Shown piece after piece: positions 39,823 through 60,848 of a DNA stretch of 64,000 nucleotides. The DNA is from Candidatus Stammera capleta (GTDB lineage: Bacteria > Pseudomonadota > Gammaproteobacteria > Enterobacterales > Enterobacteriaceae): assembly GCA_036884335.1 (NCBI GenBank), contig CP145599.1, positions 40,900-104,899 on the forward strand, read 5' to 3'. The notes beneath the pieces are model-generated. The model worked only from the letters and a program-made list of their open reading frames with translations. It had not been told where the DNA came from and did not search any database. Position numbers and translations under genes: made by a program. Numbering within the stretch: the stretch's first letter is position 1; every line of letters begins with the position of its first letter.

Positions 39823-40920
39823 TTAAATATTTAATTTTTTATATTTTTTTATTATTGATTTTTTATTTATTAAAATATTTTTATTTATATATTTATTATT
39901 TTTATACATATATTTAAATAGTATTTTTTCTAATATATATTTAAGTCCTCTTGCTCCTATATTTTTTTTTATTGATATTTTTGCTATTAATTTAATAGAT
40001 TCTTTTGTAAATTTTAAATTTATATTTTCTAATTTTAATAAATATTTATAATATTTAATTATAGAATTTTTTGGTTTTATTAATATTTTTATTAATTCTT
40101 TTTCAGTTAATTTTTTTAATGTAGTAATAATAGAAAATCTACTTATAAATTCAGGTATAAATCCAAATTTAATTAAATCTTTATATTCTATATTTTTTTT
40201 TTTTTTTTTTATTATACTTTTATTAAAGCCTATATTATTATTATTAATTTTTTTTTTTATTATTTTATTTATATCATTAAAAGTTCCTCCACATATAAAA
40301 AGTATATTATTAGTATTTATTAATATATTTTGTTGTAATGGATGTTTTCTTCCTCCAGTAATTGGTACTGATGATATTGTACCTTCTATAATTTTTAATA
40401 AAGATTGTTGTACACCTTCTCCTGATACATCTCTAGTAATTGATATATTATTATTTTTTTTTGAAATTTTATCTATTTCATCTATATATATTATACCTTG
40501 TTCTGCTTTTTTAATATTAAAATTACATTTTTGTATTAATCTTAATAGTATATTTTCTACATCGTCACCTACATAACCTGCTTGAGTTAATGTTGTTGCA
40601 TCTGTAATAACTATAGGTATATTTAATATTTTTGATATTGTTTTTATTATTAATGTTTTTCCACTTCCTGTAGGTCCTATAATAATTATATTTGATTTAT
40701 AATAATCAGTTATTTTATTTTTTTTTTTTGTATTAATTATTTTAAAATGATTATATATAGCAAGTGAAATTTTTTTTTTTGTATTATTTTGTCCTATTAT
40801 ATATTTATCTAATTTTTTTTTTATATATATAGGTTTGTATTTTTCTAAATTAAAATAATAATTTTTATTTATATTTTTATTTTTTTTAGTTTTATTATTA
40901 TTATTAATTTTATTTTTCAT
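39823..40920 (-). CDS. clpX: ATP-dependent Clp protease ATP-binding subunit ClpX (lacks the N-terminal zinc-binding domain)
   Basis: Intact 365-aa ORF containing [28 protein letters not shown] and [20 protein letters not shown]. The start overlaps the clpP end by 11 nt. Confidence 0.93.
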
Positions 40921-41509
40921 TTTTATGTTTTTTTTTTTTTTTTAATATTTTATCAATTATTCTATATTTTAATGCTTCTTTAGAATTAAAATATTTATCT
41001 TTTTCTATATCTTTTTTTATTATTTCTATAGGTTGTTTAGTTCTTTTATGAATTATATTTATTAATTTATTTTTTATTTTAATTATTTCATCAGTTTGTA
41101 TTTTTATATCTGTTGCTTTACCTTCTATTTTTCCTAGTGGTTGATGTATCATAATATTAGAATTAGATAAGCAAAATCTTTTTTTATTTTTTCCTGAAAT
41201 TAAAAGTATTGATGCCATAGAATATGCTTTTCCTATACATATTGTATTAATATCAGGTTTAATATAATTCATTGTGTCATATATAGACATACCTGAACTA
41301 ATTATTCCTCCTGGTGAATTTATATATATAAATATATCTTTTTTATTATTTAAATATTCTAAATATAATAATTGTGAAATTATATTATCAGACATATAAT
41401 CATCTATATATCCAGTTAAGAAAATTATTCTGTTTTTTAATAGTTTATTTAATATAATATTATTATTTTTATAATATTGGTTATAATAGCTATTTTTATT
41501 TAGTTTCAT
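40910..41509 (-). CDS. clpP: ATP-dependent Clp protease proteolytic subunit
   Basis: Intact 199-aa ORF containing ..[32 protein letters not shown] (Ser-His catalytic context). Confidence 0.95.
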
Positions 41510-41955
41510 TTTTTTTTTTTTTTATTTAAAAAATTATATTTATAGTTTTTGAAACAAATTTTGTGTAAAATTTTATTTATTAATTTATAATCATTTTGTG
41601 ATCCAAATTTTTTTATTAGTTTAATACTTTCATTAATTATTATTTTTTTGTCTAATTTTTTATTTTTTTTAAGTTCATATATAGCTATATTTAAAACAGA
41701 TATTTTAATTAATCCTATATATCTTTTTTTTTTTTTTAAATTTTTATTTATAATTTTATTTATATATTTTTTTTTTTTTTTAATTCAAGATAATATATTT
41801 TTTAAATATTTTTTATCTATTTTTTTAAATATTTTTTTGTTTATTAATTTGAATTCTTTTATTTTAGATTTAATATTATTACATTTTGATATTATAAAAG
41901 AATATATTATTTGTAGAGCTATTTCTCTAGTTTTTATATTTTTTTTGAAGTGCAA
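41500..41955 (-). CDS. nusB: transcription antitermination factor NusB
   Basis: My coordinate-by-coordinate minus-strand translation gives ..TREIALQIIYSF.. and ISVLNIAIYELKKNKKLDKKIIINESIKLIKKFGSQNDYKLINKILHKI, matching E. coli RECAVQALYSW and LAVLRIALYEL..VAINEAIELAKSFG..FVNGVLDK. There is no ATG; the likely start is TTG 41953..41955. It reads through TGA 41506..41508 to TAA 41500..41502. Confidence 0.8.
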
Positions 41956-41987
41956 AATTTAATCCTATATAATTTATTTAAATTATT

Positions 41988-42276: not shown

Positions 42277-43218
<942 letters not shown>

Positions 43219-47863: not shown

Positions 47864-49249
47864 TTAATAATCATATTTTTTGTTTGCATAATTATCAAAT
47901 CTTGATATTTTACCATTAAAAATTAAATGTATTGTTCCAGTAGGCCCATTTCTTTGTTTTCCTATTATTATTTCAGCTATACCTTTCATATCTGAATTTT
48001 CATTATATACTTCATCTCTATATATAAATATTATTAGATCTGCGTCTTGTTCTATAGAACCTGATTCTCTTAAATCAGAATTTACAGGTCTTTTATCTGA
48101 TCTTTGTTCTGATGATCTATTTAATTGTGATAATGCTATTATTGGTATTTTTAATTCTTTTGCTAATAATTTTAATGATCTGGAAATATCTGCTATTTCT
48201 AATGTTCTATTATCTAAATATGTAGATGATTTCATTAATTGTAAATAGTCTATCATTACTATACTTAATCCTTTATTTTCTCTATATATTTTTCTTGTTC
48301 TTGATCTTATATCTGTAGGTGTTAAATTACATGAATCATCTATAAAAATATTTTTTTTTTTTTCTAATATTTTTATTGTATTTATTATTTTAATTCAATC
48401 TTCATTATTTAATTTACCTGTTTTTATTTTATTTTGATCTACTCTAGATAAAGATGAAATTATTCTAATTATAATTTGTTCTGATGGCATTTCTAAACTA
48501 AAAATTAATATTGGTTTTTTATAAGACATAGATATATTTTCACAAATATTCATTGCAAATGTAGTTTTTCCCATAGATGGTCTTGCAGCTATTATTATTA
48601 AATCTGATTTTTGAAATCCAAATGTTTTTTTATTTAAATCTATATATCCAGTATTTATACCAGTAATATTTTTTTTAGGATTTTTATATAATTTTTTTAT
48701 TTTTTTTTTAGTTTTTTTAATTATGTTTTTTATATTTTGTGGTTTATTTTCATTATTTAGTTTTTCTTCTGATATTTTAAATATTTTTGATTCTGCTAAA
48801 TCTATTATTTCTTTACTATTTCTTCCTTGTGGATTAAAACTATGTATTATTATTTCATTAGATATATTTATAATTTTTCTTAATATTGATTTTTCTTTTA
48901 TTATTTCTGCATAATAATTTATATTAGATACACTTGGTATATTTTGAGATAATTCAGCTAAATATTCAAATCCACCTATTATTTCTAATTTTTTATTTTT
49001 TTTTAATGATTCTGATAGTGTTATTAAATCTATAGGTTTATATGATTCTAATAATTTTTTCATTTCATTAAATATTATTTGATGAGATTTATTAAAAAAA
49101 TCGTTAAAGTTTATTATTTCATATATATTTTCTCATTTATCGTTATCTAACATTAATCCTCCTAATACTGATTGTTCTGATTCTATAGAATATGGAGGTG
49201 TATTAATTTTTTTATTTTTTATTTTATTATTTTTAAAAAAATTTTTCAT
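47864..49249 (-). CDS. dnaB: replicative DNA helicase DnaB
   Basis: ATG is the complement of 49247..49249. Contains TPPYSIESEQSVLGGLMLDNDK-W. The Walker A region is ARPSMGKTTFAMN. The C-terminal piece has ..IIALSQLNRSSEQR..IIGKQRNGPTG. All pieces are in one frame. 461 codons. Confidence 0.95.
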
Positions 49250-53963: not shown

Positions 53964-54248
53964 ATGAAATATAAATATTTTTGAAATAAAGAAATTGCTA
54001 TTAATATAGCTAAAAAATATGATATAAAATTAAAAAAAATTCATTGAAAAATTATTTATTATTTTAGATCTTTTTATTTTAAAAATAAAATTTTACCTAA
54101 TATTAGATTAATTTTAATTTATTTAAATAAAAATAATAATAATAAAAAATATAATAGTATTTATTTATTTAAGTTATTTTCTATTAATTTATTAAAAACT
54201 ATTTCAGATATTTCTGGTTTGAAAAATAAATTAATAGTTTGTTTTTAA
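53964..54248 (+). CDS. tusE: sulfurtransferase TusE / DsrC-family protein
   Basis: 94 codons with two TGA. ..-W-NKEIAINIAKKYDIKLKKIH-W-KIIYYFRSFYFKN.. and the C-terminal SIYLFKLFS..ISDISGLKNKLIVCF parallel E. coli TusE (HWEVVRFVRDFYLEF.., SRYLYRLFP..KIAGLPKPVKCI), including the near-terminal Cys. Confidence 0.7.
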
Positions 54249-55849
54249 TATATTTTAATTTTATATTTTATTTTATATAAATTTATTATTTTAATAATTT
54301 TTTTAGTGAAAAGATGTAGTTTTTTATTAAATTTACTTTGTATAATTATATTTCATTTGTATTTTATATTTTTTTTTTTATTTAATTTTGGTTTATTAAT
54401 AAATATTTTTTTTTTAAATTTTTTTATTATATTTTTAGTTTTAGATCAAAAATATAAAAATTTTATATTATTTATTTTTTTTATTTTTATTGTTATTTCT
54501 TTTAAATAAGGAGGATATTTTATTATTTTTCTTTGTTTTATAATATTTAATATTATTTTTATATAGTTATTTTTTTTTATATATTTAAATATTTTATTTT
54601 TAGGATATTTTGTATAAAAAATTATTATTTTTTTATTTTTATTATTTATTTTTTCTATAAATTTAAAATATTTTTTTGTAAATATTTCTATTGATTTATA
54701 ATTTTCAGAAATAATATGTTTATCTATATTTAATATTAAAATTAATTTTATTTTTTTTTTAAATTTGAATTTTTTTGAAAATATAATTAGATTATTTATT
54801 TTTTTTTTTTTTATTTTTTTTTTATAAATTAAAAAATTTTTAATTTTATTTATATTTTTATATTTATTTTTTTTTAATATTATTAATATTTTTTTATTTT
54901 TATTTATATAATATATAATTTTATTTATTATTTTTTTTTTTTTTTTTTTATATATATATATTTTATTAAAGAAAAAATTTTTTTTTTTTTTAATTTTTAT
55001 AATTTTATATTTTTTTTTAGTTATATTATATATTGTATTTATCGATGGTGTTGTTGATTCTAATATTACATCATTTTTTTCTATTTTTGATCTTATTATA
55101 GAAAGATTTTTAGCATTATATAGTAATTTATTTTTATATAAATTATTATTTTCGTCAAATACTATTATTAATCCTAAATTTTTAAATGGAGTAAATATAG
55201 ATGATTTAGTTCCTATTATTATTTGTATTTTATTTTTTTTAGTTTTATTTCAAATATTAATTTTTTTTTTTATTTTTATTTTTGAATTTAATATTATAAT
55301 TTTTTTTTTTATTTTTTTTTTTATTTTTTTTTTTATTTTTTTTATTTTATTTTTTTTTGGTACTAAAATTAATATTTGTAATTTTTTTTTTATTTTTTTT
55401 TTTATTATTTTACATAATAATTTTATTTTATTATATTTATTATATTCTTTTATTAAATATATATTAGATTTTTTTTTTTTTATTTTTTTTTTTTTATTTT
55501 TTTTTTTTTTAATTTTTTCTATTTTATATTTTTTTTTATTTTTAGGTATTATATTAAATATAATTTTATTTATATTATAAAAATAATATTTTGAACAAAA
55601 ATTAATTAATTTAATTATTTCTTTATTTAAAATTGAATATTTATCAATAATTTTTTTTATTTTTATAATATTTTTAAATTTTAAATTTGTGTGTTTTTTT
55701 TTATAAATTTTTCATATTACTCCAATTAATTTTTTTTTATTTAAATTAATTATTATTCTTGATCCTATTTCTATTTTATTTTTATATTTTATTTTATAAA
55801 ATGAATTATTTGTTTTATTTTTTGGTAATATAGTTTTAATTATAAACAT
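54245..55849 (-). CDS. priA: primosomal protein N' (PriA), reduced and probably helicase-defective
   Basis: I translated the full minus strand with only TGA interruptions. Contains ..IEIGSRIIINLNKKKLIGVI-W-KI, QILILVPKK, IQIIIGTKSSIFTPFKNLGLIIVFDENNNLYKNK, ILESTTPSINTIYNI, ..IKYPPYL.. and ..YK-W-NIIIQSK, colinear with E. coli PriA. 534 codons. Confidence 0.8.
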
Positions 55850-56912: not shown

Positions 56913-57007
56913 TTTTTTATATTATTTAATTTATATTAATTTTATTATTAAATTTATTAAATGTATATATAATTATAAATTAATTATTATTTTTTTATTT
57001 TATATTT

Positions 57008-57937
57008 ATGATACATAATTCAGCTTTTTTAAAAGATATTGTTAAATATTTAAATTTAAAAAAAAATGGTATATATTTAGATTGTACTTTTGGTTGTGGT
57101 GGACATTCATTAGAAATATTGAAAAATTTAAATAAAAATGGTAAATTATTGTCTTTTGATTTAGATCCTAAATGTAATAAATTTTCTGTTAATTTATTAA
57201 ATAAATATAATAATTTTTTTTATGTTAATGATAATTTTATTAATATTGATAAATATGTTAATAAATTATTTAATTCTAAAATAGATGGTATATTATTTGA
57301 TTTAGGTATATCTTCTTACCAATTAGATGATTGTTTAAGAGGTTTTTCTTTTATGAATAATGGTCCTTTAGATATGAGAATTAATCAAAATATTGGTTTT
57401 AAGGCAAGTTATTGATTAAATAGAGCTAGTAAATTTAATATATTTAAAGTAATAAAATATTTAGGTGAAGAAAGATGTGCTATGTCTATTTCTAAAAAAA
57501 TATGTATAGAAAGAAAATATAGATATATTAATACTACTGAACATTTATCTAATTTAGTAAAAAGTGTAGTTAAATTTAATAATTTTAATAAGAATAAATC
57601 AACTAGAACTTTTCAAGCAATACGTATATTTATTAATAATGAATTATTTAATTTAAAGTTAGCTTTGAAGAAAGCTTATAAATTATTATCCTCTAAAGGT
57701 AGATTAGTAGTTATTAGTTTTCATTCTTTAGAGGATAGAATAGTTAAAAATTTTATAAATAGAAAAAGTAATAATAAATTATGTTTATTAAATAAATTAC
57801 CTTTAACTTATAAACAAATAAATAAATTTTATCCTATTAAAATGTTAAATATAGGTAAAATAAAACCTAAATATAAAGATATTATAATTAATAATAGAAT
57901 AAGAAGTGCTGTTTTAAGAATTGCACAAAAAATTTAA
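57008..57937 (+). CDS. rsmH: 16S rRNA (cytosine1402-N4)-methyltransferase
   Basis: Contains GIYLDCTFGCGGHS, DLGISSYQLD and GPLDMRIN. Pieces 57008.. and 57482.. share a frame. 309 codons. Confidence 0.9.
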
Positions 57938-57944
57938 ATTTTTA

Positions 57945-58250
57945 TTATTTATTTGGATTAATTTTAATTATTAAATATTTAATATTTTTGTTTATAATTG
58001 ATATTATTTTTTTTTTTTTTTTATTTAAATATATTTTTCATATTGGATTTGATATTTCAAAAGTTAAAGTATCTTTATTGAAATTTATTATTTTACATTG
58101 TTTTTTAATATATTTAGGTATTATTTTTTTTATTTTTTTATTTAGATTTTTTATGTTTTTATATTTTTTTATTATTTTTTTAAAATTATAAATATTTAAT
58201 TTTTTTTTATTTAATATATTTATTATTAATTCTGGTTTTTTTTTATCATA
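57945..58250 (-). CDS. hypothetical protein, tentatively DUF721/DciA-like; open frame without a canonical start codon
   Basis: My codon-by-codon minus-strand translation gives 101 sense codons between TAA (complement of 58251..58253) and TAA (57945..57947): YDKKKPELIINILNKKKLNIYNFKKIIKKYKNIKNLNKKIKKIIPKYIKKQCKIINFNKDTLTFEISNPI-W-KIYLNKKKKKIISIINKNIKYLIIKINPNK. There is no ATG, GTG or TTG. The first table-4 alternative starts are TTA at 58227..58229 and ATA at 58224..58226. Confidence 0.35.
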
Positions 58251-58337
58251 TTAATGAATTTTAAATTTATTTATATTATAATTAATTATATTATATAAAT
58301 ATAATATTTTTATTAATTTAGAGTAAAATTTTTTTAT

Positions 58338-60848
58338 ATGTTTTATAAATTATTTTCATATATTTTTAATTTAAGTAATAGATTTAAATTTATAAATTTA
58401 CAAAATTTAGTAAATAAAATTAATGATTTAGAAAAATATTTTGTTAATTTAAATGATAGTAAATTAAAATATAATACATTTAAATATAAATCTATTATTA
58501 ATAAGAATAATATAGATAAATTTTTACCTGAAGTTTATGCTAACATTAAAGAAGCTATAAGAAGAGTATTTAATATTAAATTATTTGATGTTCAATTATT
58601 GGGTGCTATAGTTTTACATAAAGGTTATATAGCTGAAATGAAAACTGGTGAAGGTAAAACTATTACATGTACTTTACCTGCTTATTTAAATTGTCTTTTA
58701 GGTAAAGGTGTTCATATTGTTACTGTAAATGATTATTTAGCTAAAAGAGATTATGATAATAATTATGAATTATTTAAATTTTTAGGAATTAAAATAGGTT
58801 TAATATTATCAGATATGTCTTTGATAGATAAAAGAAAATCTTATTTATATGATATTACTTATGGTACTAATAATGAATATTGTTTCGATTATTTAAGAGA
58901 TAATATGTGTTATAATAAGAATGATATTGTTCATAGAAAATATTTAAATTATGCTATTTTAGATGAAGTTGATTCAATATTAATTGATGAGTCTAGAGTT
59001 CCTTTAATAATATCCAAATCTGAATTTTCTAATAATGATATTTTTTATAAAATTAATAAAATTATTCATTTTTTAAAGGTAAAAGATAATAAAAATAAAT
59101 TTGGTGATTTTATAATAGATGAAAAATTTAAAAATATTTATTTAACTGAAAATGGTATTAATAAGGTTGAAGAATTATTAATTAAAAATAATTTTATTAG
59201 TGATATTAAATATTTTTATAATTTTTATAATATTAAATTCATTAATTATATTATTTGTTCTTTAAAAGCTAATTATTTGTTTAATAAAAATGTTGATTAT
59301 TTAGTTAAGGATGATGATATAATTATAATAGATGAATTTACTGGAAGAATGGTACCTGGTAAAAGATGATCAGATGGTTTACATCAAGCAATTGAAGCTA
59401 AAGAAAATGTTACTATAAAAAATGATAGTAAAATATTGGCATCTATAACTTTTCAAAATTATTTTAAATTATATAATAAATTATCTGGTATGAGTGGTAC
59501 AGTTTTAAGTGAATCTTGTGAATTTAGTTCAATATATAATTTAGATACTATAGAAATTCCAACTAATAAAGTTATTAAAAGAAAAGATTTTTTTGATTTA
59601 GTTTATTTAAATGAAATTGAAAAGATTAAAGCTATAGTTAAAGATATTAAATATAGATATAAAAGGAAACAACCTGTATTAGTGGGAACAACTTCAATAA
59701 GTAAATCTGAATTAATTTCTAAAGAATTAAATAAAAATAATATTAAACATAATATTTTAAATGCTAAATTTCATAAATTTGAAGCTAAAATTATTTCTCA
59801 AGCTGGTAGTTTGGGTTCTGTAACTATTGCTACTAATATGGCTGGTAGAGGAACTGATATTATTTTAGGTGGAAATTTATCTAATTTATTAAAAAATAAA
59901 AATTATAGTATTAAAAAAATTAACAAAATAAAAAAAAAATGATTTTTAGATAATAAATTAGTTATAAAATTAGGTGGATTACATATTATAGGTAGTGAAA
60001 GACATGAATCTAGAAGAATTGATGATCAATTGAGAGGTAGATGTGGAAGACAAGGGGATCCAGGTTCTACTAGGTTTTATATATCTTTAGATGATTATTT
60101 AATAAGAATTTTTTTATCTAAAAAAATAATAAATTTTATAAAAAAAATTAATGTAAGTAGTGATAAATTTATAGAAAGTTATTTTGTTTCTAAATCTATA
60201 GAAAATGCTCAAAGAAATATTGATTTTAGAAATTTAGAGATTAGAAAAGAATTATTAAATTATGATAATATTACAAATAAACAGAGAATTATAATATATA
60301 AAATAAGAAATAAAATATTATTTTCTAATAATTTAAATATAAAATATAAAGTTATAATTAAGGATTTAGTTGATAAAATTTTATCTAAATTTAATATTGA
60401 TAATTTTTTATTATATTATAAAGATATTAAAAATATTATATATGTTAATTTTAATTATAATATTAATTTATATTTTTTTAATGAATTAAATTTTTATAAA
60501 TTTAAAAAATTAATTATTTGTAAATTAATATATTTATATAAAAGAAGAATTTATTTTTTAGGTTTTAATTTATTTTGTAATATAGAAAAAAATATAATGT
60601 TAAAAATATTAGATTGTTATTGAATAGAATATTTATCTTATATAAATTATTTTAAAGAATATGTTTATTTAAGAAGTTATGCACAAATGGATCCTAGAGA
60701 AGAATATAAAATAGAAACTTTAAAAGTTTTTTTAAAGATGTTAGATAATTATTATTTTGAAGTTATAAAAATTATATTTTCTTTACCTAATAATATAAAT
60801 AGTTTGAATAAATTTTTATTAGATTTTGAAATTAATATTGATATTTAA
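58338..60848 (+). CDS. secA: protein translocase ATPase SecA
   Basis: Three track pieces share one frame. Contains [35 protein letters not shown] and [31 protein letters not shown]. 836 codons; TAA at 60846..60848. There is no C-terminal Cys-rich tail. Confidence 0.95.

Follow-up and report, generated by a model that had tools for sequence, protein, structure and literature searches.

Stammera is a gammaproteobacterium that lives extracellularly as a symbiont of cassidine leaf beetles. In the 64-kb stretch of its DNA analysed here (the window), the G+C content is 16%, the N-terminal 343 amino acids of SecA are 84% identical to those of Candidatus Stammera capleta CP043980.1 and RsmH has a closest match of only 81% identity in the protein collection. 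On the minus strand of the 400-nt gap between rsmH and secA lies an open frame that we identify as dciA (Table 1). Rfam (E ≤ 1) and tRNA scans of this gap returned nothing. A generic sigma-70 and terminator scan gave fewer matches than shuffled sequence and is uninformative at this G+C content. The motif AATTATAATATAA, in the intergenic region from which dciA and secA diverge, reads TATAAT on either strand and may represent a shared -10 element, or divergent -10 elements, for the two genes.

Table 1. Features at and around the dciA locus, with positions given in the window
Feature	Position	Strand	Remarks
dnaB	47864..49249	-	replicative helicase, presumed DciA client; DnaB_C 6.4e-104, DnaB N-terminal domain 6.5e-35
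rsmH	57008..57937	+	first dcw-cluster gene; convergent with dciA; rest of the cluster deleted in the window strain
dciA stop TAA	57945..57947	-	second TAA at 57942..57944; 7 nt to the end of convergent rsmH
dciA open frame	57948..58250	-	101 sense codons; DUF721/KH-like domain only
dciA conserved body, from Pro6	58235..57948	-	
Internal A16 tract (KKKKK)	58007..58022	-	in frame; homologous A18 in strain L001 out of frame
TGA read as Trp (code 4)	58038..58040	-	aligned with Trp of free-living 144-aa DciA homologues
Unshifted ATG frame	58226..58249	-	ATG ATA AAA AAA AAC CAG AAT TAA; 7 codons plus stop
A9 tract, proposed slippage site	58236..58244	-	A10 would join the ATG to the dciA frame, giving MIKKKPELI...
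ATG, probable start codon	58247..58249	-	one base out of the dciA frame; conserved in 10/10 strains
AATTATAATATAA motif	58271..58283	-	22 nt upstream of the ATG; conserved in 8/10 strains
secA	58338..60848	+	divergent from dciA; open under code 4 only

A recount of the minus strand from 58250 to 57948 gave 101 sense codons bounded by TAA on both sides (58253..58251 upstream, TAA TAA at 57947..57942 downstream), in agreement with a preliminary description of this locus. That description had estimated one TAA about every eight codons and considered such a frame very unlikely to arise by chance, and both points hold. In the local composition the stop probability is 0.12 per codon, or one stop per 8.3 codons, which puts the probability of 101 open codons at ~2.5e-6, and the other two frames of the same strand contain 19 and 15 stops. 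Across 5000 dinucleotide-preserving shuffles of the rsmH-secA gap, the minus strand never reached 101 open codons (maximum 86), while 0.8% of the shuffles reached this length in any of the six frames. In this genome, open frames of at least 90 codons often arise antisense to real genes, and the length of the frame is therefore not decisive by itself. The frame contains a single TGA (58040..58038), which is sense under code 4 only. TGA also occupies conserved Trp positions in SecA (GKRWSDGLHQ) and TpiA (AYEPIWSIGTG), and secA forms a single 844-codon frame only when TGA is read as sense. Thus, the genome uses code 4, as already published for Stammera in a 2023 preprint that also presents transcription profiles of the symbiont (10.1101/2023.12.12.571295).

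The translation matched the Pfam family PF05258 (DciA/DUF721) with 40.4 bits (E 3.5e-10) against a curated gathering cut-off of 24 bits, which supports the family resemblance first noticed by eye. DciA is the ancestral DnaB helicase loader or operator of bacteria without DnaC. The match joins residues 29-94 of the open frame to profile positions 18-84 of 89. Neither nine shuffles of the sequence nor its reversal gave a DciA match in Pfam, the best score to any family being 15.5 bits, so the match is no artefact of the Lys/Ile/Asn composition. Four of seven Stammera orthologues were individually significant in Pfam (best E 6.3e-11), and a scan of the open frame against NCBIfam returned only noise. 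With a profile built from the seven orthologues, the only significant PDB sequence was chain C of 8A3V, the DciA of Vibrio cholerae (VcDciA; E 1.1e-5), and the alignment was collinear from the N-terminus (19-93 versus 21-95). HMMER searches of 1.84 billion representative proteins, with split fragments of the window protein and the orthologue P0001 as queries, matched only proteins from Stammera-sized genomes and one 144-aa protein. A profile-based word search added relatives of the latter, all annotated as PF05258, and the nearest relatives outside Stammera are thus PF05258 proteins of 144-145 aa.

The fold was modelled with AF2 on P0001, which is 58% identical to the window protein, from an alignment of 13 sequences (pLDDT 84.5, pTM 0.69). 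After a low-confidence coil of about seven residues, the model consists of a helix (8-12), a long helix (15-41), a short helix (44-47), two strands, two helices and a final strand. The KH-like fold that had been suggested as a check is what the model of this orthologue adopts: the top Foldseek match in the PDB was VcDciA (8a3v_D; TMq 0.77, rmsd 1.1 Å over 86 columns), followed by the DUF721 domain of D. radiodurans (7ykm) and then by DnaA domain I (4tps_D). The modelled fold is KH-like, resembling both the N-terminal domain (NTD) of VcDciA and DnaA domain I.

If translation starts at the ATG, Stammera DciA has 101 aa. By the Pfam coordinates about 11 of them precede the domain and about 2 follow it, and the protein ends within 2-7 residues of the domain. 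VcDciA consists of an NTD, a hinge (Glu99-Ser121) and a C-terminal domain (CTD) that docks on the LH-DH module of DnaB as a hairpin of helices, and a helix of the NTD also contacts the DH helix of DnaB (PMC9912922). The Stammera protein matches the KH-like NTD in sequence and structure, with ~20% identity in the structural alignment, and its gene has the same secA neighbourhood. However, the protein ends where the hinge begins and lacks both the hinge and the CTD hairpin, whereas the deposited VcDciA chain has 163 residues. The stop lies 7 nt from rsmH, and in larger Stammera genomes the gene abuts ftsZ, which leaves no room for a hidden C-terminal tail. Sequence extensions have been reported as essential for the DciA of V. 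cholerae and M. tuberculosis, and domain-only proteins of "Group 4" have been described from Bacteroidetes, Thermotogae and Rickettsia conorii, none of which had been studied experimentally (Blaine et al., 10.1101/2022.01.24.477630). Stammera DciA has this Group 4 architecture, its DUF721 domain being flanked on each side by fewer than 14 aa. Unlike those proteins, it arose within a gammaproteobacterial lineage whose free-living relatives identified here (P0127, P0130 and P0131) keep a C-terminal tail of ~45 aa. We infer from these tailed relatives that the Stammera tail was lost secondarily, and that the protein is probably a secondary truncation.

In beta- and gammaproteobacteria, PF05258 genes lie between secA and lpxC, and Enterobacterales include DnaC-type as well as DciA-type lineages (Brezellec et al., PMC5109545). 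A DciA protein in an Enterobacterales-affiliated symbiont is therefore expected rather than anomalous. A DUF721 gene beside secA in relatives had been proposed as a check of the assignment, and dciA adjoins secA in the Stammera loci examined. The gene order is ...ftsZ-<dciA-secA> in Stammera genomes of 302-305 kb, rsmH-murG-<dciA-secA> in those of 274 kb and rsmH-<dciA-secA> in those of 245-271 kb and in the window. Downstream of rsmH, the large genomes carry murE-murF-mraY-murD, and lpxC is absent among the genes called at the ftsZ-<dciA-secA> locus. Thus, dciA occupies the ancestral gammaproteobacterial site, with the end of the dcw cluster on one side and secA on the other. It is a survivor of repeated deletions of the dcw genes around it. 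The locus had been called a scar, and this deletion series shows that the scar is real. Comparison of L043-L050 with the window (56984..58337) shows the dcw cluster eroded stepwise; between rsmH and dciA, the remnant is murG alone in the 274-kb genomes, and nothing is left in the window strain and the other small genomes. An HMM built from Stammera and free-living DciA matched none of the open frames at 35 secA loci outside Stammera, mostly from Alphaproteobacteria, candidate phyla and similar groups, so that synteny beyond Stammera rests on the literature (PMC5109545).

The presumed client of DciA is encoded in the same window: as first reported, dnaB and a reduced priA are present, together with a gene for SSB. 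A resident dnaC or dnaI and dciA are expected to exclude one another. No dnaC-like gene had been seen, and tblastn with E. coli DnaC and DnaT likewise found none in the window or in the short loci of the other Stammera strains (E ≥ 4.9), a search space of about a quarter of a genome. DciA and the AAA+ loaders DnaC and DnaI share the presumed task of helping to load DnaB, but the DciA fold is unrelated to theirs and has no ATPase domain. By analogy with its family, Stammera DciA would act on this DnaB, and as a tail-less protein it would do so through surfaces of the N-terminal domain only, contacting the DH helix of DnaB as well as DNA. The window PriA (54245..55849, minus strand) is shortened to 534 aa with ~32% lysine; Pfam recognises only its 3'-DNA-binding domain and part of the DEAD helicase domain. 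In L044, one of the larger Stammera genomes, gene calling splits priA into two overlapping pieces.

The frame contains no ATG, GTG or TTG among its 101 codons, and its first TTA is at 58229..58227, both as initially described. From this it had been concluded that only TTA, ATA or ATT could initiate, but an out-of-frame ATG followed by an A9 tract is a better explanation of the missing start. The minus-strand sequence leading into the conserved body is ATG AT AAAAAAAAA CCA GAA TTA, and dciA occupies the -1 frame of the ATG at 58249..58247. The unshifted ATG frame contains the slippery heptamer A AAA AAC.

We compared the locus with those of nine further Stammera strains (10 loci in all). The gene is retained in all 10, and its sense frame is free of stops in nine; the off-frames contain 11-25 stops. 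An ATG is present in every strain, but in five of the 10 it is out of the dciA frame. These five, the window, L001 (CP043980), L039 (CP144810), L040 (CP144782) and L041 (CP024013, 271,175 bp), all read ATG-A(T/C)-A9-CC. In the others the ATG is in frame. L042, the sister of L041, has ATG-AT-A10-CC and a called gene of 103 aa, and the remaining in-frame arrangements are ATG-A9-CC (L037), ATG-AAT-A9-CC (L047), ATG-ATT-A9-TAT-CC (L049) and ATG-AAA-ATA-A8 (L048). A SecA tree places the frameshifted strains as (L040,(L039,(window,L001))) plus L041. This placement indicates that the frame offset persisted through several speciation events, down to 64-67% SecA identity, while the frame downstream remained constrained.

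Two routes could join the ATG to the frame. RNA polymerase may add one A at the A9 tract in a fraction of the messages, which would then encode full-length DciA, or the ribosome may slip back by one base (-1) on the A run and so enter the dciA frame. Either route would yield MIKKKPELI... at a reduced level. With a ribosomal -1 shift on A AAA AAC the product would hardly differ, except that one residue of the run could be Asn instead of Lys. The peptide MIKKKPELIINILNK would be expected from expressed DciA. The first route has precedents in other symbionts. In Blochmannia and Buchnera, slippage of RNA polymerase corrects homopolymer frameshifts that different species share; the affected genes include the replication genes dnaX and dnaG, and full-length transcripts are reported to make up ~30% (PMC3017870). 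Stammera dciA is alike in that a replication gene of an AT-rich obligate symbiont has a single-base offset in a poly(A) tract of at least nine, and in that several species have this offset in common without decay of the downstream frame. It differs in the position of the tract: at codons 3-5 the offset does not truncate the protein but uncouples the start from the whole of it, so that the gene is invisible to callers that rely on ATG, GTG or TTG. The second route recalls programmed -1 frameshifting at A AAA AAG in E. coli dnaX and IS elements. The dciA heptamer would likewise permit a -1 shift into the gene, but its A-site codon is AAC rather than AAG, no second product is expected and no stimulatory RNA structure was found downstream of the tract (-3.5 kcal/mol, z -0.11), so that a classical programmed -1 site is not supported. 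Slippage on the A tract is, by analogy with the other symbionts, the likeliest route, and we think it somewhat probable that dciA is expressed through the A9 tract.

Alternatively, the same gene could start at a non-canonical in-frame codon, TTA at 58229..58227 or an ATA or ATT just downstream, which would make the protein 7-11 residues shorter. TTA, ATA and ATT are listed among the alternative initiators of NCBI translation table 4, loss of the first ~7 coil residues need not harm the modelled fold, and the lack of a stimulatory structure after the A9 tract also speaks for such a start. We nevertheless consider this rather improbable, on several grounds. The ATG is retained at the same tract-side position in all five frameshifted strains and holds one of only six G's in the 400-nt gap. 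KKKPELI, which lies upstream of the candidate codons, is conserved as amino acids. The other real genes of the window start at an ATG no more than 20 codons from the upstream stop, the one exception being a probable TTG. Near-cognate initiation in bacteria falls far short of the ~30% of full-length transcripts that have been reported for frameshifted genes with homopolymer tracts (PMC3017870). The exceptional gene, a 152-codon frame at 41500..41958 on the minus strand that is NusB-like by eye, contains no ATG anywhere and has TTG as its second codon; apart from dciA, no further real-looking gene of the window lacks an ATG start.

The preliminary description had taken the frame for a possible remnant. 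A dciA inactivated by the frameshift and still awaiting erasure would account for the missing in-frame start, the second frameshift in L001, the loss of the DnaB-binding tail and the gene calls that skip the frame in several genomes. The pattern of substitution speaks against this. Within the frameshifted clade, dN/dS (Nei-Gojobori, code 4) is 0.13 for the window and L001 (Fisher p 2e-7), 0.25 for the window and L039 (p 7e-5) and 0.29 for L001 and L039. Distant pairs give 0.4-1.0, probably because synonymous sites, which have almost only two states at 16% GC, are saturated. In simulations of neutral evolution, the probability that no stop arises is 0.04 after 28 substitutions, 0.002 after 60 and 0.0003 after 100, yet the frame is intact across the frameshifted clade (67-84% SecA identity) except for a homopolymer run in L001. 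In addition, dciA outlived several independent deletions that removed all of its dcw neighbours. The gene is under purifying selection and is not a decaying remnant, and the view that it is already dead is very unlikely. The exception in L001 is a second frame offset within its internal A18 run, which could reflect a mistake in assembling the homopolymer, another site that depends on slippage or the onset of decay. Gene calling in this region of L001 (9600..9911 of CP043980.1) gives only a 51-aa fragment (P0125).

Less likely still is that A9 is a sequencing or assembly error, the true tract being A10 and the gene an ordinary one. Homopolymer runs are error-prone, and L042 does have A10. However, the same A9 occurs in five sequences (the window, CP043980, CP144810, CP144782 and CP024013), and it is improbable that five separate sequences would all carry the same assembly error. 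Moreover, none of 170 other runs of at least nine A in the window is accompanied by a mid-gene switch of frame, which indicates that frameshifts are not rampant there. A last possibility, that coding lies in the plus-strand frame at 57988..58191 (67 aa from a TTG, 98 codons between stops) and that the minus-strand frame is merely its shadow, has next to no likelihood, in keeping with its earlier ranking as the weaker candidate: it has a TTG start and a place on the program's list of open reading frames, but no Pfam match, 25% Phe as is typical of the antisense of Lys-rich genes, and one to three stops in the equivalent frame of seven of nine relatives.

With homology, fold, synteny, conservation, purifying selection and the geometry of the frameshift established, we hold the window frame very probably to be a functional dciA, whose product would be expected from its family to load DnaB. 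The whole reading, in which Stammera keeps dciA at its ancestral locus, makes a domain-only product and expresses it by slippage at A9, has in our estimate a probability of roughly 70%. It is conceivable, though doubtful, that the offset is moreover a maintained recoding device that throttles the helicase loader in one Stammera clade while the tail-less DciA still loads DnaB. If so, the C-terminal hairpin would be dispensable in vivo, and the KH-like domain would suffice, alone or with a partner.

The kinds of element involved are already known, namely the DciA family and its canonical locus, domain-only DciA proteins and homopolymer frameshifts tolerated in symbionts. We found no mention of DciA together with Stammera in the literature searched. 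The gene adds a replication-initiation factor to the inventory of a symbiont with a genome of 216-340 kb, one that gene callers have apparently missed in several strains. Its persistence amid the deletion of the dcw cluster is comparative evidence that a DnaB loader is still needed in very small genomes. Being a minimal DciA that occurs in nature and descends from tailed gammaproteobacterial proteins, it lends itself to testing what the DUF721 domain alone is able to do, which has been flagged as an open question in the DciA literature (10.1101/2022.01.24.477630; PMC9912922). It also carries a warning for annotation, since a homopolymer offset at codons 3-5 hides a whole gene and thereby distorts pangenome and core-genome counts.

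The protein collection contains RsmH from ~32 Stammera-sized genomes and a called DciA-like protein from only ~10. Many more strains may thus carry an uncalled, frameshifted or start-less dciA, unless the word-based search missed called ones. The 170 sense-oriented A runs of at least nine in the window are mostly intragenic and include A19 at 54931..54949 (in priA), A18 at 40193..40210 and A17 at 42630..42646. If RNA polymerase slips on A runs in Stammera as it does in other bacteria, much of the transcriptome would be heterogeneous.
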